A DNA stretch of 49,567 nt from the sequence record MT176427.1; one strand, written 5' to 3'. The stretch comes from Escherichia phage CJ19. This document shows positions 253 to 48,166 of the stretch, in pieces (the stretch's first letter is position 1; each line of letters begins with the position of its first letter). The notes beneath the pieces are model-generated. The model was not told where the DNA came from and ran no database searches. It saw nothing but the letters and a program-made list of their open reading frames with translations. The translations under genes were made by a program, and so were the position numbers.

Positions 253-486
253 TCAACAGTTACCATAAATGTCAAAGCTCCCCGACATAGCCTGATAGTC
301 AGCAACTGGCAAGTGACCATAAGCGCCCTTGAGATAAGTCACCGCAATAACCTCGTCCAGACCGCCGTCCTTACCAAGTGCGATCGCGTCCTTTGCGCTA
401 TCGTTAGCCAGGCGAAGCAGGTGCGGAAATAAAACCTTGTTACGGTATGCTGCGTGTTTGTGAGTAACAAAAGGTTGCTTTTTCAT
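253..486 (-). CDS. hypothetical early protein (77 aa)
   Basis: ORF with start 30-40 nt downstream of promoter cassette 517-562 and leader CGCCAACGAAACGAGGAA; no recognisable motif. Confidence 0.4.
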   Translation of the reverse strand: MKKQPFVTHKHAAYRNKVLFPHLLRLANDSAKDAIALGKDGGLDEVIAVTYLKGAYGHLPVADYQAMSGSFDIYGNC

Positions 487-516
487 GTTGATTCCTCGTT
501 TCGTTGGCGTGAAAGA

Positions 517-562
517 AGTATACCCGCACAGCGGCGGGTATGTTTAGCAATTCGTGCTATTC
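517..562 (-). promoter_or_regulatory. early promoter cassette (ATAGCAC box + hairpin + -10 TATACT)
   Basis: Box 543-562; hairpin ACCCGC/GCGGGT; 22-bp spacer; start of 253-486 downstream. Confidence 0.5.
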
Positions 563-1518: not shown

Positions 1519-1791
1519 TTATTTAACCTCGGTAACTTTGCAGTTATTAACAGCGACGAACCCGCCGACGCTAACTTTGACCTGACTTTCAGTCACGTTG
1601 TAAACTGCCTTCCCTAAGAAAGTTTGCAGTTCGTAGTGATCGCCTTCACGCTCAATAACAACGCCCTTGTCTGAAACAATCTGCGACTTGGTTACTGTGA
1701 AGGATTCCTTACCGCAATCGTAAAACTTGGTATCTTCTGCACAACCTGCCATTGCCACAACTGCCAGTAGAGCTATGATTGACTTTTTCAT
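1519..1791 (-). CDS. small lipoprotein (90 aa)
   Basis: N-terminal signal peptide with lipobox (VAMAGC); own promoter cassette 1831-1876 and conserved leader. Confidence 0.6.
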   Translation of the reverse strand: MKKSIIALLAVVAMAGCAEDTKFYDCGKESFTVTKSQIVSDKGVVIEREGDHYELQTFLGKAVYNVTESQVKVSVGGFVAVNNCKVTEVK

Positions 1792-1830
1792 TTTGATTTC
1801 CTTGGTTGGTTACTTCGTTTCGATGAGGTG

Positions 1831-1876
1831 ATAATACACCACCTCACCGCTTCGTCTTTAGCAATTCGTGCTATTC
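1831..1876 (-). promoter_or_regulatory. early promoter cassette (ATAGCAC box + -10 TATTAT)
   Basis: Box 1857-1876; hairpin GAGGTG/CACCTC with -10 in loop; 22-bp spacer; leader TCATCGAAACGAAG. Confidence 0.5.
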
Positions 1877-2286: not shown

Positions 2287-4385
2287 AAGTTACCGTCCAA
2301 TCCAAAATCCTTACGTGAGATAATATCCTCACCCTTTGCATTCTTGCGGTGAGTTACCCGCACCGGATGCGCTATGTGGTGAGCATTGTTTAAAATCATT
2401 TTCGCACTTCTGTAAGCTGCCATTAATTTTGCGATCTTACTGTCATGAACGTGAGGTAATACCCCTTTCTGCTTCCATATCGTGTGGCATACCTGTGCCG
2501 TTGACTGAGGGAAGAACTTCTCATACGCGATGAAGTTAACTCCAACTGAGTCTGTCAGGTCGTACCGATAAAGAATGCCAGTATGATTACGTGTCAGCGT
2601 GACTTCGAAACTGTTAACTGTGCACCAGTCGTTTTTGGTGTAAGCCTTACCAGTCAGGTTATCATTGGGATCTTTCAGGCTCACGTCACAGCAACGGCAT
2701 ATTCTCGCCACTACGTCATTTTCAGCGCCACATCCCTTAACAATCACCTCGCCAGTGCGATCATCAATCTGGTCTTCACATATGCGAGACTTCCAGAAAT
2801 ACTCGCAACGATTTCCGTTTTCATCTCTGTGAATGCAGCGGCGAGCGTAAAAACTGTTCTCAGTTCCGCACAGTTCACATTTTTTCGGCTCTTTCTTACC
2901 ATCAAAGCGGCGCTGGTACTGAGCCTCTTCAAGAATCGGATCAAAGTAAAGCTGACCCAGCTCGTCCATGCAACCCGCAAAATCCCATACCAGGTGATCT
3001 TCCTTCACCATTCCCATCTCTTTTTGCCACGGCTTAAGCAATCTCATACCTCGACCAAGCAACTGGATCAGCAGAGTAAGTGAACCGATTTTGCGAAGGA
3101 TTACCGAAAAATCCCAAAACGGAACGTTAACTCCAGTGGTTAGCGCCATAACCTGAAATATGTATTTTATCTCGCCACGGTTAGCCGCCTCAAGTATTGC
3201 TTGTCGCTTTTTGGTGTTAGTCTTTTCCGTAATGATCTCATAGGTGGAGCCATGTGGAAGATAGCTCGCTGCCTCCTTGCAGTGTCGCTGACCTGCGCAC
3301 GTAATCAGTACGCCATTTCGCTTTTTCGCTTCCTCTACGACCATCCCCATGATTCGCTTTGTCATGCTGGCGTTGTCATGGATTTTATTTTCCATCGCCT
3401 TCATTTCTTTCTGGCTAAAATCCGCAGTTCCGTCCTGGCTTGATGCCTTGAACTCACCAAGATCATAGCCAGCGTCACCAACACTTCCGAATATTGTTGG
3501 AACAACTGAACCGAACTCAATAAGGTAATTAGTGTCGATGTTAGTAACCTGCTCACGCCAGAACCCAGGTAACTTAGGGTTATCGACAACAATCGGAGTT
3601 GTGCCTCTGAACTCAGAACCAGTCATGCCGAAGATGCGTAATTCTTTCCCGTTCTTCTCTTTGCAGCGGCGCATCAATTCAGTGATAATGATCGTGTACT
3701 GGCTTCGCTTGGTGCCGAGAACAGGCTTGCCAGTCTTCCGTCTGATTAGCAATTGCTTATCCATCACCTGAACGCCAACTTCTACGCCGTCAAGGTATCC
3801 ATTGACATAACCTTCGCTGTTTTTCGGGTAGTCAACGAATACACGCTCACCTTTTTCAGTGAGCATCATTTCAATCGTCTCTTCGTTGTCGATGGCGGCG
3901 GCAAGGTCTTCCCAATCCACCTGGTGACATTCATCAATACCCAGCACCATAGGTGTAAAATCACCAAGCGCCTTAAACAGACCGTTTGCAACCGTTCCTT
4001 CCGAACCGACAACGATTGGGAAGTAAGCTGATTTTGTGTTCAAGCCAGCACAGTAAACTGAGTTAGGAACGCCAAAGTTTGAGATCTCCTCACTATCCTG
4101 AGCGACAATATCGCCCTGACGCGCCAGTATCATCATCGACAAGCCCATTTCTTTNACGCGCGATGCGATCATGGCAAAGCCGATCGTCTTACCTGCCGAC
4201 ACTGACGCCTTAACGATGAATGGATGCTTATAGCGAGCAATGCGCTTGCCGATCTCGTCATACATTACGCACTGATACTCATAAGGAACCATGTCGCCAA
4301 ATGTGAATTTATCCTGAATCTCTTTAATCCTCTGCGGCCCGAGGTCTTCTATCTGTTTTTTAATGGATTTAATGCGCATAGCCAT
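2283..4385 (-). CDS. SF2 DNA helicase with C-terminal Cys-rich zinc-finger region
   Basis: Walker A (SAGKTIGFA), DExH box (GIDECHQ), C-terminal CxxC clusters; promoter cassette 4423-4467 upstream; N at 4155. Confidence 0.8.
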   Translation of the reverse strand: MAMRIKSIKKQIEDLGPQRIKEIQDKFTFGDMVPYEYQCVMYDEIGKRIARYKHPFIVKASVSAGKTIGFAMIASRXKEMGLSMMILARQGDIVAQDSEEISNFGVPNSVYCAGLNTKSAYFPIVVGSEGTVANGLFKALGDFTPMVLGIDECHQVDWEDLAAAIDNEETIEMMLTEKGERVFVDYPKNSEGYVNGYLDGVEVGVQVMDKQLLIRRKTGKPVLGTKRSQYTIIITELMRRCKEKNGKELRIFGMTGSEFRGTTPIVVDNPKLPGFWREQVTNIDTNYLIEFGSVVPTIFGSVGDAGYDLGEFKASSQDGTADFSQKEMKAMENKIHDNASMTKRIMGMVVEEAKKRNGVLITCAGQRHCKEAASYLPHGSTYEIITEKTNTKKRQAILEAANRGEIKYIFQVMALTTGVNVPFWDFSVILRKIGSLTLLIQLLGRGMRLLKPWQKEMGMVKEDHLVWDFAGCMDELGQLYFDPILEEAQYQRRFDGKKEPKKCELCGTENSFYARRCIHRDENGNRCEYFWKSRICEDQIDDRTGEVIVKGCGAENDVVARICRCCDVSLKDPNDNLTGKAYTKNDWCTVNSFEVTLTRNHTGILYRYDLTDSVGVNFIAYEKFFPQSTAQVCHTIWKQKGVLPHVHDSKIAKLMAAYRSAKMILNNAHHIAHPVRVTHRKNAKGEDIISRKDFGLDGNL

Positions 4386-4422
4386 AGTATTAAATGCCTT
4401 TCATGTTCGTTCGATTGACGTT

Positions 4423-4467
4423 ATAATAACAGCCATCGAAACCAATGTTTAACAAAAAGTGCTATTG
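4423..4467 (-). promoter_or_regulatory. promoter cassette for helicase operon
   Basis: Box variant ATAGCAC-N3-TTGTTAAA at 4448-4467; -10 TGtTATTAT; leader CAATCGAACGAACATGAAAGG. Confidence 0.45.
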
Positions 4468-4477
4468 AGGTGATGAG

Positions 4478-4951
4478 ATGAATGCAGTCGACAAGCGAAC
4501 CATTAACGGCAACAACGGAACAGTCCGAACTGAAGACAAAAAGCAACGAAAACGACCTTCAGGTTACTACGTTTTAAAAGATGAAGTAAAGGCCGGGCTT
4601 CGGGCGCGACTGGAGATGGTTCTCGACTTCTACGGAACGAAGGCCAATATCGCAAAGCAACTGAAGGTTAGTCGCCAGGCGGTTGAGGAATGGTTCAAGA
4701 GGGGCATGATGTCGGCCCGAGGCGCTCAACTGGCGCACAACCGATACAAGCGAACTGGAGAGGGTTTTCGCGCGACTTTTTGCCGACCGGATCTGCAATT
4801 CGATGGCAACGGAAAGCCGCTGACACTCCGGTGCAAAAAACGTCACATGCTGCGCGTTGTTACTGAGGCTGAATTAGCTACGAAGCCAGAATGTCGATCG
4901 TGGCGCAAGATTAAGGCCGCTAACGAAGCAGCACGAAAAGCTAAAGAGTAA
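4478..4951 (+). CDS. putative HTH DNA-binding protein (Cro/YdaS-like)
   Basis: Segment IAKQLKVSRQAVEEWFKRG resembles a Cro/YdaS-type helix-turn-helix; strong RBS GAGGTGATGAG before ATG; basic protein; terminator 4956-4990 follows. Confidence 0.4.
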   Translation: MNAVDKRTINGNNGTVRTEDKKQRKRPSGYYVLKDEVKAGLRARLEMVLDFYGTKANIAKQLKVSRQAVEEWFKRGMMSARGAQLAHNRYKRTGEGFRATFCRPDLQFDGNGKPLTLRCKKRHMLRVVTEAELATKPECRSWRKIKAANEAARKAKE

Positions 4952-5961: not shown

Positions 5962-5998
5962 AGCAATGCTATACTGCACTTTAGCAATTCGTGCTAAA
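5962..5998 (+). promoter_or_regulatory. extended -10 promoter (TGCTATACT) with the palindromic box downstream at operator position
   Basis: TGCTATACT at 5967-5975; perfect palindrome TTTAGCA-ATTCG-TGCTAAA at 5980-5998, 23 nt before tail fibre ATG. Confidence 0.4.
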
Positions 5999-8476: not shown

Positions 8477-9133
8477 TTAGAATTGTTCGATGGATTCAGA
8501 TTGTACAGGCTCGGAAGGTGCATTGGCAATCTTATCATCAACCTTTTGCGTATCTGCCTTTTTCGCTGGCTGGAAACCGCGAGCGCTACCGATGCTCAAT
8601 TCAGCCTTGCGCTTCTGCAAGTGGTCTTCTGCAATCTTCCATTCCGCCGCGCCGAGTGAACCTTTCGCGCTCTTATAGATCACCTGGAGGTCTTCAAGTT
8701 TTTCGCAGTTGGTGATCAGTTTTTTGTAGTCCGCTGCCGTGCGCTTTGCAATTTCTGCATCGTCATCGCTCTGAGTGATTCCAAGCGCTGCGCACAATGC
8801 GTAACGGCGACCGTATGAAGTTGTTGAGCCGTAAGCCTGGGCGCTAATCTTCTCGATCGGCATATTGTACTGAAAAGCAAGCCACTCGCCGGAACTGTGA
8901 AGGATGAGCGTCTCAATGTGCATTACCTTTTCGGTTGACGTATCCAGATTTGACTGGATAACCATAAGGTCATGCTCTTTTAGTGCTGGCTCTACGGCCT
9001 CCAAAACGTCCGTCAGGTTTGAGTAATTGTTTTTCAGGTGACCGTTAAAGCCTGATTTTCTTGCTATGGCAAACTGCTTTTTAGCTGCAATTAGAGCGGC
9101 TGAAACATTCGAAAACTTATCTGATGTACGCAT
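8477..9133 (-). CDS. Erf-like single-strand annealing protein (putative)
   Basis: 218-aa ORF between ssb and exonuclease; N-terminal region resembles Erf-family pattern; own promoter cassette 9171-9213 with consensus TGCTATAAT. Confidence 0.5.
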   Translation of the reverse strand: MRTSDKFSNVSAALIAAKKQFAIARKSGFNGHLKNNYSNLTDVLEAVEPALKEHDLMVIQSNLDTSTEKVMHIETLILHSSGEWLAFQYNMPIEKISAQAYGSTTSYGRRYALCAALGITQSDDDAEIAKRTAADYKKLITNCEKLEDLQVIYKSAKGSLGAAEWKIAEDHLQKRKAELSIGSARGFQPAKKADTQKVDDKIANAPSEPVQSESIEQF

Positions 9134-9170
9134 TATATATACCTTTATTTACTTCGTTTGATTTACGGTG

Positions 9171-9213
9171 ATTATAGCAAATCACCGCGTTCGTGTTTAG
9201 CAAAAAGTGCTAC
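9171..9213 (-). promoter_or_regulatory. early promoter cassette (ATAGCAC box + TGCTATAAT)
   Basis: Box 9196-9213; hairpin CGGTGAT/ATCACCG; consensus extended -10. Confidence 0.5.
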
Positions 9214-10680: not shown

Positions 10681-10726
10681 AATAGCACGAATAGCTAAAT
10701 ACTCCGTAATCATCCTTTGCTATAGT
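10681..10726 (+). promoter_or_regulatory. promoter cassette (ATAGCAC box + TGCTATAGT)
   Basis: Box 10681-10700; -10 at 10721-10726; leader CCATCGAAACGAAACAC; drives lipoprotein gene. Confidence 0.5.
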
Positions 10727-10766
10727 TACTCCATCGAAACGAAACACACTCACTAAGGAATACAAA

Positions 10767-10997
10767 ATGACTAAATTCATCAAATCGGCAATAATCGCAG
10801 CAGCAGTAATCATGACTGTAGGTTGTTCTTCCGGACCCCGACCTGACGGTTGGTGCGCGACTGAAGTTAACGGCTCATGTGTTGCTAAATGGAAAGGAGG
10901 TGTAGTTGTAGCTTCAGGTGAAACAGATATCCGCTGGGATGGTATCAAAAACCTCTCTGGATCAGTTAAAGATTATGGCACCAAGGAGTGGAAATAA
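10767..10997 (+). CDS. small outer-membrane lipoprotein (Cor-like superinfection-exclusion candidate)
   Basis: 76-aa ORF, signal peptide plus lipobox (MTVGC); promoter cassette 10681-10726 and conserved leader; adjacent to tail-tip gene region. Confidence 0.5.
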
Positions 10998-24373: not shown

Positions 24374-25333
24374 TTAAGCGGTAGCTTTCAGGCCAACAAG
24401 CATGATAATCGTCAGCGGACGATATACGATCAGACCAGTGGTCTTGGAGGTGCACGGAACCTTAAAGTGCAAATCCTTCGCCTGCATCGGGAGCATGTTG
24501 AAAGATTCTGGAATCTCGATGCTCATGTTCATTGGGTCTTTCTCATACGCCAGAACAGCTTTAGTGCCTGCGCCGTCGATGTCTTCCAGTTCAGAGATGG
24601 AAGAGATGGTGATGCCACCGTTCTGAGACTTGAACCAGTCCAGATAACTCATCGTGGTTTCCGGCATACGCTTAGCGAGCAATTTACGCTGTGACGGCGG
24701 GATAACGATGTCGGTGATCTTGTGCTGACCATTGGTCAGGGTTTCCATCTTCTCGATCAGGTCGGTCAGTTCTTCGCTTGCTTTCTCTGCATCGCCCCAC
24801 GCACCAGCAACAGAAGTCACACGGGTGATGTTCGGATGGTCGAAAACAGAGATGATCTTGTGAGGCTTGGACCCTTTGAAGACCAACTGGTTAACCAGAG
24901 TTTCGTGACCTTCGCGTGCCAGAGTCGCTTTACGATCTGACAGGCTTGAACCAAGTGCCGCACCAGTTTTAATCTCGTCGATAGAGATCAGCCACGCGTT
25001 ACCGAGGCGGTGAACTCGACCAGATTCCAGACTGTGAGTAGCGTCAACAGTTGGCAGGTCGTCGGTGTAGTCAGCGATAATCTTCGCCATGGTCACGCCG
25101 TCAAACTTGAGATATTCGAACAGGTTAGCGGTCGGGCTAATCTCAGTAGTGACAGGGAACAGAGCCAGCGCGTAGGTTTCAGGGTAAGCCGCTTCATACT
25201 GGCGCTTAAGCAACTGAGTCATCTGTTTGACAGTCCAGATGCCAAGCTGGTCGGCTTTGTTGCCGCTTACGCCAAGCTGGCGCATACCGTTAGTAATCAT
25301 GTTCTGCTCGAAAGCGTCGAGTTTCATAGTCAT
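24374..25333 (-). CDS. major capsid protein
   Basis: 319-aa ORF downstream of protease/scaffold and decoration genes, followed by strong intrinsic terminator 24339-24369. Confidence 0.6.
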   Translation of the reverse strand: MTMKLDAFEQNMITNGMRQLGVSGNKADQLGIWTVKQMTQLLKRQYEAAYPETYALALFPVTTEISPTANLFEYLKFDGVTMAKIIADYTDDLPTVDATHSLESGRVHRLGNAWLISIDEIKTGAALGSSLSDRKATLAREGHETLVNQLVFKGSKPHKIISVFDHPNITRVTSVAGAWGDAEKASEELTDLIEKMETLTNGQHKITDIVIPPSQRKLLAKRMPETTMSYLDWFKSQNGGITISSISELEDIDGAGTKAVLAYEKDPMNMSIEIPESFNMLPMQAKDLHFKVPCTSKTTGLIVYRPLTIIMLVGLKATA

Positions 25334-25451
25334 AATTTGTTTTCCTTTGTTTGTTAGAAAGCCGTGATTAAGTTCACGGCTCTATAATAGCATTTTTTGT
25401 TAAACGGTCAACAGCTTTTTATGTTAAGCGATTATGTCGCTCTCTGGCAAT

Positions 25452-33863: not shown

Positions 33864-34072
33864 TTCTCGATCACCTTATATTCATTTTCGCTAATGCTGA
33901 TTTCGTTGCCAACATGCACGAACTCTGTTTCACGGATAGCTTGGATTGAAAGGTCGCCGTCCTTGTATTTACCTGACACTTCGATTACGTCGCCGACTTT
34001 AAATCCGCAATCTTCCAGGGTAAGGGCGTCGTCATCTGTCACATAGTTAACGTCGATAATTTCAATTTTCAT
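33860..34072 (-). CDS. hypothetical acidic protein (70 aa)
   Basis: First ORF after promoter cassette 34103-34148 with leader CCATCGAAACGAACGAGGAAG. Confidence 0.4.
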   Translation of the reverse strand: MKIEIIDVNYVTDDDALTLEDCGFKVGDVIEVSGKYKDGDLSIQAIRETEFVHVGNEISISENEYKVIEK

Positions 34073-34102
34073 TTCTGCTTCCTCGTTCGTTTCGATGGGG
34101 TA

Positions 34103-34148
34103 ACTATACAGCTACCCCGATTATGAGTTTTAACAAAAAGTGCTATCG
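34103..34148 (-). promoter_or_regulatory. early promoter cassette (ATAGCAC box + TATAGT)
   Basis: Box 34128-34148; -10 at 34103-34108 in hairpin loop; 22-bp spacer. Confidence 0.5.
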
Positions 34149-34543: not shown

Positions 34544-34702
34544 TTATTCCCCTTCGTTTTCGTCAAATTGTTGATTGTTGATCTGAGTGCGAACCTCTTT
34601 AACCATCTCTGAGAACTCATCGGCTGAGCACTGCATAGTCTGAGTCGCCAGTAGTTGCTTAAGGATTACGGCTTGCTTATCTGACAGGTTGATAGTAATC
34701 AT
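34544..34702 (-). CDS. small hypothetical protein (52 aa)
   Basis: Manually translated ORF (MITINLSDKQAVILKQLL...) with RBS GAGAGGGAAG, directly after promoter cassette 34732-34776; below ORF-track size cutoff. Confidence 0.3.
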   Translation of the reverse strand: MITINLSDKQAVILKQLLATQTMQCSADEFSEMVKEVRTQINNQQFDENEGE

Positions 34703-34731
34703 TTTGCTTCCCTCTCGTTTGGTGTGAAATA

Positions 34732-34776
34732 ACTATAACAAAACCCGCCGGAGCGGGTTTAGCAATTAGTGCTATT
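34732..34776 (-). promoter_or_regulatory. early promoter cassette (ATAGCAC box + TGTTATAGT)
   Basis: Box 34757-34776; hairpin AACCCGC/GCGGGTT in spacer; 22-bp spacer. Confidence 0.5.
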
Positions 34777-35451: not shown

Positions 35452-35997
35452 TTAGTTTGCTTTCTTGTCTACGCCGTGAGACTTAAGGCCGGAGTGCACG
35501 TTGTCGCCATAGTCACACACCTGATAGGTAGTGATGCCGAGGCTTCGGAAGTGCGCGATAACGCTAGGACTATCATCAAAGGCCGCAGTGATGCGGTGCA
35601 ATCCAATGTAGCGTAAAAATTCTTCCTTTATGATCGTGTCCTTGCGGTTATCATCAGCCTGGCGCATGACCAGAACGTTGTAATTAGCACCAGCATCATG
35701 CAGCCACTGCGTTGATTCCTCGACCACTGCGTCAGATCGACCAGTGAGAACGATAATGAAAGCACCGGAAGCGAACAGGCTATTCATTACGTCAATCGTT
35801 TCCTGGAATGGCTGATCGAACTTGCTCAATGAGTTAAATTCAAGCCATGACTCAGTGAGGTGCAAGTCATTTGTCGGTAGCTTGTGAAGGCGGTGCGAAC
35901 CGTCCGACAGAGTACCATCGAAATCAAATATGTAAACTTTCTTGTTTACTGCTTCCGTTTGAAGGTGATGCTTAATCATTGTGTAAAGCTGGTTCAT
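35452..35997 (-). CDS. HAD-superfamily phosphatase (putative 3-prime phosphatase)
   Basis: HAD motif I DFDGTL near N-terminus, further motifs VLTGRSD and FDDSPS; promoter cassette 36030-36075. Confidence 0.55.
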   Translation of the reverse strand: MNQLYTMIKHHLQTEAVNKKVYIFDFDGTLSDGSHRLHKLPTNDLHLTESWLEFNSLSKFDQPFQETIDVMNSLFASGAFIIVLTGRSDAVVEESTQWLHDAGANYNVLVMRQADDNRKDTIIKEEFLRYIGLHRITAAFDDSPSVIAHFRSLGITTYQVCDYGDNVHSGLKSHGVDKKAN

Positions 35998-36029
35998 TTT
36001 TAACTTCCTTTCGTGTGGTTGATGTGGGG

Positions 36030-36075
36030 ATTATACCAGTCAGGATGAATCCCCCTTTAACAAAACGTGCTATTT
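36030..36075 (-). promoter_or_regulatory. early promoter cassette (ATAGCAC box + TGGTATAAT)
   Basis: Box 36056-36075; 22-bp spacer; leader CATCAACCACACGAAAGGAAG before phosphatase ATG. Confidence 0.5.
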
Positions 36076-36876
36076 GATATAGAACTGAGCCACTACGCCA
36101 CCATCAGGATTTACTATTGCGTATGCGTCACCGAGCGTTGCATTGGCATTCATAACCTTACCAATTCTCTTTGCTTTCCATCGGTAATCGCCTTTTAAAT
36201 CAGAGATGAATGCATCTTGTGCGATATGGATAAGGCGAGGCTCGCAACCTGGCTCGCACTCATCAACTTCATAATCGTACTGGCAACCATTGATAAACGC
36301 ATTGCCGTTAACATGGTAGCAAACTGCCACCTTGCGATCGCGTGCAGATTCGCATTCACCCACCGCCCATACGTTACGATTGACATAACCGTAACCGCCG
36401 CTGCGTGGTTCCATTTTCGCGGTTGACATGGTAAGCGCCTTGCCTTCACCGAAATTGCTACCGAAAGTGAACTTGCCGTTCTTCGTCAATTCATCTGCGA
36501 CGCTGTAGGTGTCATTCTTGACGGTCTTACCTGGGCCAGTCGCAAGCTCATTCACGAACGCATCGACAGTGCTGTGACACGGATCGCCATTGTACTTAGG
36601 CAAATCCTTGAGTAATTGTTCACAGGCTTCGTGCACCAGCTTACCTACAGCTTCTTTGATTGCCTGCTCAACATGGTCAGCGATAATCGAATATGCAGAA
36701 ATTTGATGTTTTTGAGTCGATTCTAACGCCTTTAAACGCGCCTGTAACGACTCAATTTCTTGCTTATGCATATCGTAGGATACCCACCGACCATCGTCGC
36801 AGGCTTGCATTCTGACGCCGTGAATGTTAACGCTGGTTGCTACTGCTACAGGATTAAAACGGTTGATGCTGTTCAT
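36070..36876 (-). CDS. hypothetical Cys-rich protein (268 aa)
   Basis: ORF with C-terminal Cys cluster (CQYDYEVDECEPGCEP); promoter cassette 36918-36963. Confidence 0.4.
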   Translation of the reverse strand: MNSINRFNPVAVATSVNIHGVRMQACDDGRWVSYDMHKQEIESLQARLKALESTQKHQISAYSIIADHVEQAIKEAVGKLVHEACEQLLKDLPKYNGDPCHSTVDAFVNELATGPGKTVKNDTYSVADELTKNGKFTFGSNFGEGKALTMSTAKMEPRSGGYGYVNRNVWAVGECESARDRKVAVCYHVNGNAFINGCQYDYEVDECEPGCEPRLIHIAQDAFISDLKGDYRWKAKRIGKVMNANATLGDAYAIVNPDGGVVAQFYIK

Positions 36877-36917
36877 GTGTGATTCCTCAGTTGATTTGTG
36901 TTCACTTGACAGGAGAC

Positions 36918-36963
36918 ACTATATCTAATGTCTCCGAGCAAGTTTTAACAAAAAGTGCTATTC
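36918..36963 (-). promoter_or_regulatory. early promoter cassette (ATAGCAC box + TATAGT)
   Basis: Box 36943-36963; hairpin GGAGACA/TGTCTCC with -10 in loop. Confidence 0.5.
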
Positions 36964-37358: not shown

Positions 37359-37718
37359 AAGTAACTCTTCCCTACAGTTTCGCCAACTTCTCGTGATGCC
37401 TTTAATTTGTTCCAGTAGTCGAACGGGCCGACTGGCTCCCATGAGTTAGGCTTGCCTGGATCGTTCCACCAACCAAGAACTGCTTCGCTACCGTAACATG
37501 AGTTCATTGGCTTTCCGCTACTGAAATAGCTTTTGAATACTCGATCAAGCTCGTCACCACCAACCTTGATTGAACTATTATTAAATTCAGTGCCATCAAA
37601 GAACCCCCCCCACAACGATCGGATATGATCCGGGATCTCGTGGGTTTGTCTCTTTCTCGTGGAGCTTGGTATAATCAAGGTCTGCGTAAATTGATGGGTT
37701 AAGTAAACGTACTTTCAT
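37355..37718 (-). CDS. hypothetical protein interrupted by frameshift in C8 homopolymer
   Basis: ATG at 37718 with RBS and promoter cassette 37762-37807 opens a frame that stops at about 37596; the ORF-track frame (37355-37678) continues from the poly-C run at 37604-37611; both frames encode Gly-Gly across the run. Confidence 0.35.
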
Positions 37719-37761
37719 TTGTGAATCCTCTGTTATTGGTTGTATCTGCTTCAATAAGGCC

Positions 37762-37807
37762 ACTATATCAAATGGCCTTGCGGAAGGTTTAACGATTAGT
37801 GCTATTT
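37762..37807 (-). promoter_or_regulatory. early promoter cassette (ATAGCAC box + TGATATAGT)
   Basis: Box 37788-37807; hairpin AAGGCCA/TGGCCTT with -10 in loop. Confidence 0.5.
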
Positions 37808-38329: not shown

Positions 38330-38553
38330 ACAATACCCTTATCAGCTCTGTGTGCAGCTTCAATCAGATACGCAGCTAACTGGCGAGCCTGGTCTGGCGT
38401 GTACAGCATGTAACTACTTGGGTATGATTCTTCGTGAGGGTTGAAGTCAAGGCGCACCTTGAAAGTCACCTTGTCATTGCTATGAATCTTCACAGCCTCA
38501 ATTTCGGCCTGCTCGTTGTAGTCGTCTGCGATGCGTACGGCGGTTGTGCTCAT
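38326..38553 (-). CDS. small paralog family member P1 (75 aa)
   Basis: C-terminal motif YTPDQARQLAAYLIEAA shared with 39113-39334 and 39331-39537; promoter cassette 38593-38638. Confidence 0.5.
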   Translation of the reverse strand: MSTTAVRIADDYNEQAEIEAVKIHSNDKVTFKVRLDFNPHEESYPSSYMLYTPDQARQLAAYLIEAAHRADKGIV

Positions 38554-38592
38554 AAATTACCCCTTAGTTGATTGTTTCACTTCAATGAGTGC

Positions 38593-38638
38593 ACTATAGC
38601 AAATGCACTCACGGCAGTTTTAACAAAAAGTGCTATCG
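38593..38638 (-). promoter_or_regulatory. early promoter cassette (ATAGCAC box + TGCTATAGT)
   Basis: Box 38618-38638; hairpin TGAGTGCA/TGCACTCA with -10 in loop; drives paralog P1. Confidence 0.5.
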
Positions 38639-39539: not shown

Positions 39540-39754
39540 TTATTTCCCCTCCGCTTCGTCTGCTGCAAGGATTAATGCCGCCGCTAACTTGCGGGCCGCG
39601 TCAGGTGAGTATTGCATCAGCGTTTGACAGTCGGAGTAACCGTCAGGATCGAATTCAAGGTTGACAACATGCCCGCGAACGGTTCCCATCGTGACGCTGA
39701 CCCCTCTGCTTGTTCAAAGTGAACATCGTCAATGCGTACAGTTTACATAATCAT
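39540..39754 (-). pseudogene. decayed fourth copy of the small paralog family (P4)
   Basis: Manual translation: ATG ATT ATG TAA (stop at codon 4), then TVRIDDVHFEQAEG in one frame and VSVTMGTVRGHVVNLEFDPDGYSDCQTLMQYSPDAARKLAAALILAADEAEGK in another; intact promoter cassette 39779-39824 and RBS. Confidence 0.45.
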
Positions 39755-39778
39755 TTCCTCTTCGTTGTTGATAGGGTA

Positions 39779-39824
39779 ATCATAGCTGACTACCCGATTT
39801 GTTGTTTAGCAATTCGTGCTATTC
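39779..39824 (-). promoter_or_regulatory. early promoter cassette (ATAGCAC box + TATGAT)
   Basis: Box 39805-39824; 22-bp spacer; drives decayed P4 and P3-P2 operon. Confidence 0.45.
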
Positions 39825-41527: not shown

Positions 41528-41574
41528 AATAGCACTTTTTGCTAATGACCGATCAGGTGTGATTCGCTATTATT
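41528..41574 (+). promoter_or_regulatory. promoter cassette (ATAGCAC box + TATTAT)
   Basis: Box 41528-41546; -10 at 41569-41574; leader CCATCGAAACGAG. Confidence 0.5.
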
Positions 41575-41612
41575 ACTCCATCGAAACGAGTGAAGAGAAC
41601 TGGAGAAAATAA

Positions 41613-41816
41613 ATGAGCACTGTAAAAATGTATTGCTACATCGTGATGTCTGAGCCGTGTGATCCGAATTACGATACGACAGTTCACTGCGTATGCCTCA
41701 GTGAACAGATGGCTAAGCAGGTTTGCGAGAAGATGAACATGCGCGATGGTTTCAACAACTATGAATACTACGAAGCGGAGTTGCAGAAATGGAGTTACGC
41801 CAAGAATGTGCACTGA
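41613..41816 (+). CDS. hypothetical Cys-containing small protein (67 aa)
   Basis: Promoter cassette 41528-41574 and leader CCATCGAAACGAG upstream. Confidence 0.4.
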   Translation: MSTVKMYCYIVMSEPCDPNYDTTVHCVCLSEQMAKQVCEKMNMRDGFNNYEYYEAELQKWSYAKNVH

Positions 41817-42447: not shown

Positions 42448-42491
42448 ATAGCACGAATTGCTAAACTAAGCCTCACGGATTGAGGCATAAT
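42447..42491 (+). promoter_or_regulatory. promoter cassette (ATAGCAC box + CATAAT)
   Basis: Box 42447-42465; hairpin GCCTCA/TGAGGC; leader TCATCGAAACGAAG. Confidence 0.5.
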
Positions 42492-42529
42492 CATTTCATC
42501 GAAACGAAGTACACAAAGAGGAAGTAAAA

Positions 42530-42754
42530 ATGTCAGTTAAAGCTCAGAACGTAGTAGCACACATCGAAGCAAAAGGCCGTGCGATCGTCAAGCTGGACCG
42601 CGCCGCAGGCGTAAGCCAAATCACCATCACGCGCCGTGAGTTCGACCGCTACGTTGTTGGCACACATCCAGGCTCAATCATCCGTAGCCTTACCCGTACT
42701 GAGATGATCAACCTGTTAAATGATAACTCACTTTACATCAATTCCTGGAGCTAA
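42530..42754 (+). CDS. hypothetical protein (74 aa)
   Basis: Promoter cassette 42447-42491 and leader TCATCGAAACGAAG upstream. Confidence 0.4.
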   Translation: MSVKAQNVVAHIEAKGRAIVKLDRAAGVSQITITRREFDRYVVGTHPGSIIRSLTRTEMINLLNDNSLYINSWS

Positions 42755-43379: not shown

Positions 43380-44044
43380 AAAAGGTAATTTACTGCTTGT
43401 TCGACGGTTCTGGTATCGCTGGCCTCCCATGGGCGGAAGATGGTCACACCGTCTACTGCTTCAATGCGGACTCCGGCAATCATGGCGAATACCATATCAA
43501 GATGAAGCATGAGAACATCCACTACGTCAACATGTGGATTGACAAGGATTTCATCACTAAGTGTGAATTGCTCGGCCTGCCTCCGGCGCAAATGGTTATC
43601 GGCTTTCCTGATTGCACGCTGTTCTCTCAGTCTGGATCACAGCATGAGCGCGGGGAAGATGAGCTGGCATACGCCCTGGCTAACGCGAAGCTCGTCGAAG
43701 AAGTCGGCAATCACTTCCAGGCACCATGGATGGTTGAGAATCCGGTAGGCAAGCTGTCAAGCCTGTGGCGTAAGCCTGACTTCTATTTCAATCCTTGCGA
43801 TTATGGCGGTTACGTTGATCACGATGATGTTTATCACCCAAGAATGCCCCCTCGTAATGCTTACAATAAAAAGACTTGCATTTGGTGTGGCAATGGATTT
43901 GTTGAACCTATTAAAAAGCCAGTTGAGAGCATTGGATTCTTCTGGGCCTGGAAATACTGCGGCGGAAAGTCTGCAAAGACAAAGGTACTCCGCTCATTAA
44001 CACCGGAAGGCTTTGCTCGCGCACTATATGAAAGCAACAAATAG
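43376..44044 (+). CDS. DNA methyltransferase-like protein (C5-cytosine-type motif order)
   Basis: Motif I-like FDGSG, motif IV-like GFPDC with Cys, motif VI-like ENPVG in the right order and spacing; short (222 aa). Confidence 0.4.
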   Translation: MKKVIYCLFDGSGIAGLPWAEDGHTVYCFNADSGNHGEYHIKMKHENIHYVNMWIDKDFITKCELLGLPPAQMVIGFPDCTLFSQSGSQHERGEDELAYALANAKLVEEVGNHFQAPWMVENPVGKLSSLWRKPDFYFNPCDYGGYVDHDDVYHPRMPPRNAYNKKTCIWCGNGFVEPIKKPVESIGFFWAWKYCGGKSAKTKVLRSLTPEGFARALYESNK

Positions 44045-44084
44045 CACTAATTGCTAAAGCCCTTCGGGGCTTTTCCTGTATATT
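44040..44084 (+). promoter_or_regulatory. promoter cassette (ATAGCAC box + TGTATATT)
   Basis: Box 44040-44058; hairpin AGCCC/GGGCT; leader TCATCGAAACGAAACAC. Confidence 0.5.
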
Positions 44085-44120
44085 CATCTCATCGAAACGA
44101 AACACGCAAAGGAAATCAAA

Positions 44121-44471
44121 ATGACAGCAACAACTAAAAACTTCATTAGCAACGAAAACGTATTATACAAAGCTCGTGTTAAAGACGGTGTAGAGCAAAT
44201 CAAGAAAGATGGTAAATGGGTTAACCTGGAAGAACGCGGTAAGTACATCAAGACAAAAACTCTTTACTGCACGAAGGTTAATCACAGGTCAGCAGTTAAA
44301 AAAGACTTCAAAGAAGGTAAGCGCTATCAGGTAAATATTCATGCTGGCCTTGGCCAATCTGCCGGTTACATTTACGATGAGGATGGTAATGCTTGGCAGC
44401 TTTACCGAAACGAAGAGGTTGGCTTCATGAGCCTCTGCGGTACGTACAAGTGGCAGGCGGCGTACAAATAA
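44121..44471 (+). CDS. hypothetical Lys-rich protein (116 aa)
   Basis: Promoter cassette 44040-44084 and leader TCATCGAAACGAAACACGCAAAGGAAA upstream. Confidence 0.4.
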   Translation: MTATTKNFISNENVLYKARVKDGVEQIKKDGKWVNLEERGKYIKTKTLYCTKVNHRSAVKKDFKEGKRYQVNIHAGLGQSAGYIYDEDGNAWQLYRNEEVGFMSLCGTYKWQAAYK

Positions 44472-47920: not shown

Positions 47921-48094
47921 CTAGTCAGCAATAATAAATTCAACCAGCGCACCATCAATCGGCGCAAAAATCCACGTCATATCGTCGCCGTAAATCTTGT
48001 AGTTACCGTCACCTTGATACTCGGCGCTGTACGGATTGTTAACAGTGAAAGGCAGGGTTTTAGATGTGTTCTTAACGCAAAATAATTTAACCAT
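47921..48094 (-). CDS. small hypothetical protein (57 aa)
   Basis: Manually translated ORF (MVKLFCVKNTSKTLPFTVNNPYSAEYQGDGNYKIYGDD...) downstream of promoter cassette 48121-48166 with RBS GAGGA; followed by terminator 47866-47895. Confidence 0.3.
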   Translation of the reverse strand: MVKLFCVKNTSKTLPFTVNNPYSAEYQGDGNYKIYGDDMTWIFAPIDGALVEFIIAD

Positions 48095-48120
48095 GATTGA
48101 ATCCTCTGTGAGTGAGACAT

Positions 48121-48166
48121 GAATATAGCGCCTTCCGGAGCTATAGTGTTAGGCAATTCGTGCTAT
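48121..48166 (-). promoter_or_regulatory. promoter cassette (ATAGCAC box variant + TATATT)
   Basis: Box 48148-48166 (TTGCCTAA variant); precedes small ORF 47921-48094. Confidence 0.4.

Follow-up and report, generated by a model that had tools for sequence, protein, structure and literature searches.

The locus at positions 10,727 to 10,766 of Escherichia phage CJ19 (MT176427.1) raises the question of why several genes of one phage genome share nearly the same bases just behind the -10 hexamer. The segment extends from the first base past a -10 hexamer (10721-10726) to the base preceding the ATG at 10767, and it lies in the 49,567-nucleotide stretch analyzed here (hereafter the window), a complete or near-complete genome (49.6 kb) of a T1-like phage (Drexlerviridae). 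The nearest relatives are the Nouzillyvirus phages vB_EcoM_50EP (50EP), P817, and TH21, with approximately 88-92% identity to the window. A reading made from the sequence alone had proposed that the initial transcribed sequence is nearly invariant in most gene cassettes of this DNA, and that such conservation, exceeding the needs of a ribosome-binding site, implies a shared RNA-level function: a processing site, a translational enhancer, or the target of an RNA-binding regulator.

Copies of the block in the window

The six leaders quoted in the sequence-only reading were all found as written, with the conserved sequence directly downstream of the -10 hexamer as described. The window contains six exact copies of CATCGAAACGA (hereafter the block) and two copies with one mismatch (Table 1), and every one of them sits in an intergenic leader. 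These eight copies compare with 1.13 expected at this level of similarity, and none of 100 shuffles reached eight. When three mismatches were allowed, 157 matches were found in the window against 148 expected; because this is the chance level, the real signal consists of the near-exact copies. The weaker versions that had been claimed before other genes are also present. Besides the copies of the helicase gene (CAATCGAACGA) and of the HTH/primase operon (CATCGAAACCA), both located in Table 1, they include TAAATCAAACG at the Erf-type recombinase gene (9155-9165, minus strand) and CATCAACCACA at 36014-36024 (minus strand).

Anatomy of the cassette

The block is one part of a cassette of approximately 75 nt, of which the window holds 16 complete copies. 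In order, this cassette comprises the repeat ATAGCAC-N3-TTGYTAA, 21 nt with an RNA hairpin, an extended -10 (G-N-TATAGT), 5 nt, the block, an A-rich unstructured leader, a Shine-Dalgarno sequence (SD), and the ATG. The hexamer is TATAGT or TATAAT, with TAnnnT in all cassettes, and in the window the SD and ATG follow 21-37 nt after +1. The upstream repeat (ATAGCAC-N3-T-N-GCTAA) occurs in 19 real copies in the window, compared with 1.1 expected; its family consensus is aATAGCAC-N3-TTGyTAAA, with a palindromic core TAGCA-N5-TGCTA and a predicted position of -50 to -34. Across seven Drexlerviridae genomes from five genera (the window, 50EP, P817, T1, TLS, Rtp, and Klebsiella phage KP36), we identified 128 cassettes, 16-20 per genome, and the distance from repeat to hexamer was 21 nt in 98 of them (range 20-24).

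A -35 box is absent from these T1-type cassettes. Given the conserved G two bases before the hexamer, and with 22 bp between the -10 and the TTGCTA of the repeat, a spacing too long for a -35, the cassettes are predicted to be extended -10 promoters without a -35. This accounts for the outcome of a canonical -35/-10 scan of 33.5-45 kb, which stayed at chance with 14 matches against 17.4 expected; a terminator scan was also at chance. The cassettes thus escape standard promoter finders. The 2024 re-annotation of phage TLS, as excerpted, gives only three sigma-70-like promoters (PMC11447400), and this count, together with the chance-level scan, suggests that the cassettes are the missing promoters, as candidates.

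The cassettes are closely fitted between genes. The stop codon of the upstream gene is the TAG within ATAGCAC in 10 of the 16 window cassettes, and most of the remaining ones are assigned a stop that either abuts the repeat on its upstream side (TAA or TGA) or is the TAA closing it; the copy at 4465 is an exception, with its stop at -40. Window cassettes are confined to 0.5-10.8 kb and 34-48.2 kb, the regions of small, variable genes, and no repeat with a correctly spaced -10 was found in the structural module (11-33 kb). Pfam searches of the proteins behind block-bearing cassettes returned two lipoproteins and otherwise no domains, with no common function. That the genes are early is deduced only from gene content and position.

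Table 1. Cassettes of the window and their parts
Feature	Coordinates	Strand	Evidence or remarks
Focal cassette: upstream repeat ATAGCACGAATAGCTAA	10682..10698	+	repeat search
Focal cassette: variable 22-nt spacer, weak hairpin (-1.0 kcal/mol)	10699..10720	+	folding; most other cassettes have a stable stem-loop here
Focal cassette: -10 hexamer TATAGT preceded by TGc (extended -10)	10721..10726	+	
Focal cassette: block CATCGAAACGA, predicted -1..+10 (C = -1, A = +1)	10732..10742	+	
Focal cassette: rest of leader, A/C-rich, unstructured, SD AAGGA	10743..10766	+	
Phage lipoprotein gene behind focal cassette	ATG 10767	+	PF24052 Phage_lipoprotein, E = 2.6e-34
Exact-block cassette	1791..1874	-	block 1815-1825; repeat 1858-1874; -10 1831-1836; start codon 1791
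Exact-block cassette	34072..34146	-	block 34087-34097; hairpin GGGGTAGCT/AGTTACCCC ending at -1
Exact-block cassette	41529..41613	+	block 41579-41589; homology break versus phage 50EP at 41588, block end
Exact-block cassette	42448..42530	+	block 42497-42507; terminator-like hairpin GCCTCA/TGAGGC upstream of -10
Exact-block cassette	44041..44121	+	block 44090-44100; terminator-like hairpin AGCCC/GGGCT then TTTT, upstream of -10
One-mismatch cassette CAACGAAACGA	486..560	-	block 496-506, shifted to 10 nt past -10; CA at standard start = 510-511
One-mismatch copy of CATCGAACCA type (CATCGAAACCA)	4434..4444	+	6 nt past TATAAT, without upstream repeat
Degenerate-block cassette CAATCGAACGA, upstream of helicase gene	4385..4465	-	block 4407-4417
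Degenerate-block cassette (..AATCAAACGAAG), between exonuclease and Erf-type recombinase genes	9133..9213	-	block 9155-9165; TGcTATAAT extended -10
Variant-start cassette CACACCAAACGA	34702..34775	-	terminator-like hairpin
Variant-start cassette CATCAACCACACGAAAGG	35997..36073	-	
Second-leader-class cassette (cTGTCAAGTGAA)	36876..36961	-	hairpin across -10
Second-leader-class cassette (TATTGAAGCAG)	37718..37805	-	hairpin AAGGCCA/TGGCCTT across -10
Second-leader-class cassette (CATTGAAGTGAA)	38553..38636	-	hairpin GAGTGCA/TGCACTC across -10
Variant-start cassette TATCAACAACGA	39743..39822	-	downstream gene has ATG TAA in window
Unrelated-start cassette (CTCACTCACAG)	48094..48166	-	-10 inside hairpin 3' arm

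Position and conservation of the block

In the seven genomes, the block lies 5 nt past the -10 hexamer in 35 of 41 copies, and its end is 9-24 nt from the ATG. An unbiased set was obtained by scanning IMG/VR with the repeat and the -10 only, leaving the leader unconstrained, which yielded at least 120 loci and at least 494 unique cassettes. Among the matches listed, which comprise 494 unique cassettes, the majority sequence from -1 to +11 is C ATCGAAACGAA. In this listed set, C occurs at -1 in 71% and T in 20% (C/T 91%), A at +1 in 78%, and A at +5 to +7 in 65-69%; further upstream, G at -14 reaches 79% and T at -15 41%, and A at -11 and T at -7 stand at 100% because the cassette-calling filter required them. 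The block with at most two mismatches was present in 161 of the 494 listed cassettes, compared with 5.6 in shuffles. Its offset from the -10 was 5 nt in 138 of these 161 listed copies, and its distance to the ATG ranged from 8 to 32 nt with modes at 15 and 22. The constant distance to the -10 and the variable distance to the ATG indicate that the promoter, and not the ribosome-binding site, sets the position of the block. Likewise, of 82 exact copies in approximately 1.3 Mb of phage DNA, 81 are preceded at 5 nt by an nAnnnT hexamer and, farther upstream, by the repeat.

These counts also show that the earlier attribution of the block to most cassettes was overstated: it is present with at most one mismatch in 7 of the 16 window cassettes, and the listed family figure amounts to approximately one third. 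The remaining cassettes, approximately two thirds, start with CATCGACAACGA, CACACCAAACGA, or yATTGAAG... instead. With the hexamer at -12 to -7, a start 7 nt after the -10 is at the optimal distance, and a pyrimidine-purine step is preferred there. The block would thus occupy -1 to +10 of the predicted transcript, a start placed by this geometry and by the mapped starts of T7 A1 and A3.

We further compared mean pairwise divergence across 18 orthologous groups, each consisting of the same downstream gene in different phages. The block diverged by 0.066 and third codon positions by 0.15, with intermediate values for the spacer (0.13), the rest of the leader (0.11), and the discriminator (0.10); the slowest parts were codon positions 1+2 (0.043), the repeat (0.038), and the -10 hexamer (0.034). 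Because the block diverges at less than half the third-codon rate, it is evidently under purifying selection, less strict than that on the -10. The view that conservation goes past the needs of a ribosome-binding site and is not confined to the SD region therefore holds, the block ending well upstream of the ATG, whereas the further step, that this implies an RNA-level function, is unsupported, because the block is fixed to the -10 and not to the SD or ATG.

Nouzillyvirus, Rtp, and KP36 all have exact copies, the same optimum recurring across genera and hosts. Lineage-specific homogenization of the block was weak, with 1.92 mismatches within genomes and 2.21 between genomes (p = 0.04), and lineage-specific block variants, whether produced by co-evolution with a phage factor or by gene conversion, were set aside on account of this weak effect. 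In composition, the region from +1 to +10 is 14% T, and TG at +4 to +6 is depleted 5-10-fold (0.6-1.4% versus approximately 6% expected). Since the only T of the block is at +2, no -10-like hexamer (nAnnnT) of a sigma-dependent pause element fits in +1 to +11. The block does contain two CG steps (+3/+4 and +8/+9), which resemble the Y-G pause motif and count against a reading in which it favors promoter escape.

The hairpin of the spacer

Nearly all spacers contain a stem-loop (approximately 33 nt from the repeat to +1; mean MFE -9.3 kcal/mol, mean z -2.55), with z < -1.64 in 68% of cassettes. The sense strand is 1.92 kcal/mol more stable than the antisense strand, compared with +0.13 +/- 0.14 in composition-matched shuffles, and the stems contain 115 G-U pairs. 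The sense-strand excess and the G-U pairs suggest that the structure is selected in sense RNA, that is, in read-through transcripts from the upstream gene. The hairpin overlaps the -10 in 64 of 128 cassettes, its 3' arm ending at -1 in 41 of these 64; in another 34 it precedes the -10 and, with a U-rich tract behind it, resembles a terminator. Block copies divide evenly between the two hairpin classes, 12 having the hairpin upstream of the -10 and 13 having it over the -10, indicating that the block is not positioned by the hairpin. For want of a fixed relation between the two, a processing site in read-through RNA, one of the functions suggested earlier, is disfavored.

The block in other phages

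To follow the block outside these cassettes, we scanned IMG/VR a second time with TATNNT-N5-CATCGAAACGA, the repeat not being required, and obtained at least 108 matches in new loci. Only 3 of the 108 new-locus matches listed carry the T1-type repeat, and the matches listed collapse to 56 independent non-Drexler contexts. Among these 56 listed contexts, a -35 with at least 5/6 identity to TTGACA at 16-18 bp was present in 45% (null 1.5%), and one with at least 4/6 in 66% (null 11%); G at -14 occurred in 57% of the matches listed for the real block. Two composition-matched shuffles that kept C at -1 and A at +1 gave complete IMG/VR counts of only 75 and 50, with no -35 of at least 5/6 and G at -14 in 13-14% across all IMG/VR. 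Bacterial genomes (596 Gb), scanned with the same pattern as a negative control and not as a reading of E. coli's own promoters, gave taxonomically random matches, 7.8% of which had a good -35; four of these nine were phi80-type prophages.

Named carriers of the exact 11-mer behind canonical sigma-70 promoters are the T4-type phages Vibrio phage KVP40, Aeromonas phage Aeh1, and Citrobacter phage CfP1 (RB16 group). In KVP40, CfP1, and a 174-kb contig, the block stands behind units resembling promoter-early stem-loops (PeSLs), which combine a GC hairpin covering the -35 with a U-tract and TATTAT. CfP1 and the 174-kb contig additionally contain T1-type cassettes in full, from the repeat through the 21 nt, the -10, and the 5 nt to the block, and canonical promoters plus the block were found at two further loci (L133 and L163). 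The exact 11-mer is present as well in a large phi80-type lambdoid family (phi80, CobraSix, and Stx phages), where at least eight different operator-bearing promoters start one conserved, structured leader with the block, a set that was chosen via the block itself and is uninformative on its conservation within that family. This leader has no ATG within 45 nt. Because the flanking -35, spacer, and discriminator are unrelated between families, the module was not simply transferred.

Near-copies are found at mapped starts of host-polymerase promoters of phage T7. The annotated A1 start, C|ATCGAGAGGG, shares the first six bases of the block, and the annotated A3 start, C|ATGAAACGACAG, matches 10 of 11 bases with a one-base deletion; the A2 start is unrelated. 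Both A1 and A3 lend support to A as the predicted start.

A proposed role at transcription initiation

Given the directly observed position, copy number, anchoring, purifying selection, and cross-family recurrence of the block, we put at roughly 55% the probability that CATCGAAACGA is the consensus initial transcribed sequence (-1 to +10) of a modular, PeSL-like phage early-promoter cassette that is read by the host sigma-70 RNA polymerase (RNAP), and that it acts at initiation and promoter escape. The fixed register to the -10, the conserved -1, the lack of off-promoter copies (81/82), and the occurrence at unrelated sigma-70 promoters, some of them distant from any start codon, make a role at initiation the most economical explanation.

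Under this model, the cassette would be a full intergenic adaptor. The stop codon of the upstream gene would lie inside the 17-nt repeat (about -50 to -34), and the 21-nt spacer would form a hairpin in read-through RNA, where it may serve as an attenuator or as a 3'-end stabilizer. The extended -10 without a -35 would then be followed by the block and by the A-rich unstructured leader with its SD and ATG. The block itself would most likely act at the level of DNA and RNAP, setting the start exactly 7 nt past the -10, at the pyrimidine-purine step CA. From its composition we also infer an effect on promoter escape: a T-poor, TG-free initial sequence without a -10-like hexamer would favor rapid escape, and the unpaired A-rich 5' end of the mRNA may be a by-product.

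Alternative explanations

Several points count against the initiation reading. T-poverty and related features do not require an exact 11-mer, the large screen of initial transcribed sequences discussed below knew of no conserved natural pattern, and two thirds of the cassettes start otherwise and are presumably functional. Because the exact 11-mer goes beyond rules of composition and so many starts differ, a role of the 5'-terminal RNA has to be considered, and sequence analysis alone does not separate such a role from a DNA-level role of +1 to +10. In this explanation, which we regard as possible but doubtful, a 5'-terminal element pppAUCGAAACGA would set mRNA fate through RppH, 5'-end-dependent RNase E, or a conserved RNA-binding factor of host or phage that times early-mRNA decay. 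Such an element would likewise be anchored to the start site; the first 10 nt of the leader are 89% unpaired, the leaders carry less structure than shuffles do (z about +0.8), and exact conservation of 11 nt across genera suggests sequence-specific recognition. However, -1 is also conserved although it is not transcribed, the block is also internal in read-through transcripts (as the sense-RNA hairpins indicate), where a 5'-end role cannot apply, and no known RNA family matches: a search of Rfam 15 gave 0 matches for the window at gathering thresholds, and likewise 0 for the phi80-type locus with E allowed up to 0.1. A reader encoded by the phages is unlikely, given that their families are unrelated and that their hosts range over Escherichia, Klebsiella, Citrobacter, Vibrio, and Aeromonas. 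Among the RNA-level functions put forward from the sequence alone, a 5'-terminal function, or regulator binding there, may possibly survive. The translational enhancer fares worse and is, in our judgment, quite improbable. A block recruiting 30S subunits via protein S1 or rRNA pairing, as an enhancer or ribosome standby site, would suit leaders that are 47% A and unstructured, the unpaired state of the block, and the SD and ATG within 9-39 nt in T1-type and T4-type cassettes. Its distance to the SD and ATG varies, though, while its distance to the -10 is fixed, and pairing with E. coli 16S rRNA, expected of an epsilon or downstream-box enhancer, is no better than for shuffles: the longest complementarity is 6 nt (shuffle mode 6) and the best duplex reaches -5.8 kcal/mol versus -8.4 +/- 1.6 for shuffles. 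Moreover, the block starts phi80-type leaders without a nearby ATG, and in T7 approximately 430 nt (A1) and 175 nt (A3) separate the start from the first annotated CDS downstream, gene 0.3 (record position 925).

Other explanations place the function in the DNA. As has been proposed for the PeSLs of T4-type phages, the block and the repeat might form a microhomology joint for the exchange of small genes within and between phages, the block spreading by transfer and gene conversion and not for its effect on expression. We consider this unlikely, although several observations fit it. The anatomy resembles that of PeSLs, for which the source as excerpted maps mini-circle crossovers between the -10 and the ATG (PMC2839356), and T1-type cassettes occur complete in the T4-type CfP1 and in the 174-kb contig. 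In the window, a replacement relative to 50EP begins at 41588, where the block is ending, and stops 10 nt short of the following cassette, and in the phi80-type family the boundary between variable operators and conserved leader falls at the start site. Breakpoints lie near cassettes in 17 of 98 cases versus 8.4 +/- 2.9 expected, an approximately 2-fold excess that is confounded by the cassettes being intergenic regions. Against this, eleven bases offer very little length for homologous exchange, conservation also holds where the block is single-copy and has no intragenomic partner (the phi80-type early promoter and T7 A1/A3), and the lineage-specific homogenization is weak, as described above. 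The initiation, 5'-RNA, and recombination-joint explanations are not mutually exclusive. There is very little to recommend an operator, at which a phage-encoded regulator would bind the DNA across the start and shut off some early promoters. Presence in only about a third of the cassettes is what a regulon would look like, and the phage has a Cro-like HTH protein (ORF 4478..4951) whose own predicted promoter, the copy at 4434..4444, carries the block back-to-back with the helicase cassette. Yet this HTH match falls below the Pfam cut-off, the ST23-like ORF having only a sub-threshold Cro match; dyad symmetry does not extend beyond TCG-AAA-CGA, and variants break it without compensation; and the block recurs in unrelated phage families without common regulators.

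Implications for T1-like and other phages

A broader form of the initiation reading can be offered only tentatively. The block may be a sequence-specific, portable initiation element that unrelated gamma-proteobacterial phages converged on or exchanged, and that is read by a conserved host component, either RNA polymerase in scrunching and escape or a 5'-end-sensing RNA enzyme, with an advantage beyond base composition. Together with the repeat and the hairpin, it would then form a cross-family system of mobile cassettes that moves genes between T1-like and T4-like phages.

T1-like phages are frequent phage-therapy candidates and laboratory contaminants, and so far they had almost no recognizable promoters. 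Recognition of the cassette gives 16-20 candidate promoters per genome and a testable model of early transcription for Drexlerviridae. The 11-mer at +1 in T1-like, T4-like, and lambdoid phages, with near-copies at T7 A1/A3, also provides a defined natural sequence for tests of start-site selection and escape, and it is a candidate part for strong synthetic promoters. Initial transcribed sequences (ITSs) have been thought to lack a natural consensus, and an exact 11-mer shared in this way bears on that view.

Comparison with known systems

The upstream repeat is already known from phage TLS. The TLS paper, as excerpted, describes a 21-nt direct repeat, aaATAGCACnnnTTGnTAAAA, that is co-oriented with the genes and lies approximately 76 nt upstream of start codons, and leaves its role open between a stoperator, an enhancer site, and a UP element (PMC11447400). 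The T1-type upstream repeat is the same element, and its distance in the window (17+21+6+~32 nt) equals the approximately 76 nt of TLS. The excerpted text draws no link from the repeat to a -10 at fixed spacing, a hairpin, or a conserved transcript start (PMC11447400). No mapped transcription starts or transcriptomes of T1-like phages were found in the literature searched.

The closest described units are the PeSLs, composite promoter-terminator cassettes of T4-type phages (Arbiol et al. 2010, PMC2839356; Comeau et al. 2014, PMC4122927; both as excerpted). According to these excerpts, PeSLs share with the T1-type cassette the character of repeated intergenic units in gene-plastic regions, as well as the succession of an upstream stop codon, a promoter, an SD, and an ATG, with a stem-loop containing G-T pairs that overlies the -10 or falls between the boxes. 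In the PeSL-like units of KVP40, CfP1, and the 174-kb contig, the identical 11-mer lies 5 nt behind the -10. Unlike PeSLs, the T1-type cassette has no -35; in its place come an extended -10 and, 21 nt before it, a specific 17-nt repeat. Because the -35 box is a defining feature of PeSLs, we regard the T1-type cassette as a variant of the PeSL and not as a member. T1-type cassettes in T4-type genomes extend the idea of mobile PeSL cassettes across phage families. A conserved initial transcribed block is not mentioned in the excerpted texts of the TLS and PeSL papers (PMC11447400, PMC2839356, PMC4122927), and in the searchable literature the 11-mer was printed only in primer lists, in five unrelated papers.

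T7 A1 and A3 resemble the T1-type cassettes in starting at an A after a C and in their T-poor initial sequences. They differ from these cassettes in having canonical -35 boxes, in lacking both an upstream repeat and a repeated cassette, and in carrying near-copies only.

In studies of ITSs, the first ~10 transcribed bases can shift promoter output by orders of magnitude (T5 N25 work, PMC12464699; Heyduk and Heyduk 2018, PMC5961368). In a screen of 262,144 variants, slow-escaping ITSs had 2-3 T in the first ~7 nt and TG near +5/+6, and the authors stated that no conserved natural ITS pattern had previously been identified (PMC5961368). The block avoids both the T-richness and the TG of the slow-escaping sequences. 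Whereas those studies give rules of composition and pausing, here a specific 11-mer recurs across phage families, and it is this cross-family distribution of a conserved initial transcribed block that is new.

Stop codons and the spacer hairpin

The 17-nt upstream repeat of the cassettes coincides with the ends of preceding genes. In 10 of the 16 window cassettes, the TAG within its conserved ATAGCAC is the stop codon of the upstream gene (e.g., 44041-44044, 34143-34146 and 9210-9213), and in most of the remaining cassettes the assigned stop is a TAA or TGA immediately 5' of the repeat or the TAA that ends it, the copy at 4465 being an exception. The repeat thus supplies stops in several frames, as expected of a portable intergenic adaptor.

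A hairpin lies in the spacer that separates the repeat from +1 in nearly all cassettes. Its G-U pairs and an antisense strand less stable by 1.9 kcal/mol show selection in the sense RNA. In many cassettes the 3' arm ends exactly at -1, so that the hairpin is present in read-through transcripts only; attenuation, 3'-end protection and insulation are candidate roles.

Variant arrangements in the window

Features of the window related to the cassettes
Feature	Position	Strand	Context
Inverted repeat copy	25387-25403	+	upstream of capsid-like gene 24374..25333 (-)
Repeat copy TTAGCACGAATTGCTAA without correctly spaced -10	5981-5997	-	between primase and tail-fibre genes
Second leader class	36902-36912, 37746-37756, 38577-38587	-	
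Overlapping divergent promoters	4385-4478	- and +	helicase; Cro-like HTH ORF
Spacer hairpins (examples)	34098-34122, 38588-38611, 37757-37780	-	

The leaders of a second class start with yATTGAAG or TGTCAAGTGAA and share an AACCAAT/CAATCAAC stretch that recurs 5' of the Shine-Dalgarno sequence. Because this class is also found in T1 and in the close relative 50EP, at least two promoter sub-classes are suggested.

At the back-to-back promoters, the helicase side is a full cassette, and the side of the HTH ORF (4478..4951) has the conserved block CATCGAAACCA without the upstream repeat. The initial transcribed region of each promoter lies inside the upstream region of the other. The ORF matched P22_Cro with an E-value of 1e-4, under the Pfam cut-off.

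The inverted repeat copy makes up the spacer of a canonical minus-strand promoter, TTGACC-N16-TATTAT, located directly past a terminator and ahead of the capsid-like gene, a layout that recurs in T1 (15086-) and 50EP (1541-). Any protein that recognises the repeat would lie at about -42 in early cassettes versus between -35 and -10 at the capsid-like gene promoter, and this difference in position would suggest that early and late genes are regulated in opposite senses.

The repeat copy between the primase and tail-fibre genes is followed by a terminator-like hairpin, CCTCCagaaGGAGG, and may be a decayed cassette. Downstream of the cassette at 39806-39822, the first gene begins ATG TAA (39743-39748, minus strand), with a nonsense codon at position 2; in 50EP and in P817, also a close relative, it begins ATG GAA. 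The window's gene is thus a pseudogene, or else the stop reflects an error in sequencing.

Cassettes and leaders in other phage families

Complete T1-type cassettes were found in two T4-type phages, Citrobacter phage CfP1 (L189) and a 174,436-bp contig (L044). One consists of TTAGCACGAATTGCTAA, 21 nt, TATTGT, acaca and CATCGAAACGA; the other has ATAGCACTTTTTGTTAA and 21 nt with the hairpin GGGGTA..TACCCC. Their presence indicates that phage families with no relation to each other have exchanged regulatory cassettes.

In phi80-type lambdoid phages, early promoters of at least eight kinds, each bearing operators, all start one and the same conserved, structured leader of about 45 nt (CATCGAAACGAAACATCGACAGCTGAGCGAAGTTAGCCAGCGGCG...). 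Loci among the matches listed include L131, L146, L148, L144 and at least about 55 more, with prophages L254, L261, L275 and L336 among them. No ATG lies close by and no Rfam match was found for this leader, a possible element of the nut or put kind.
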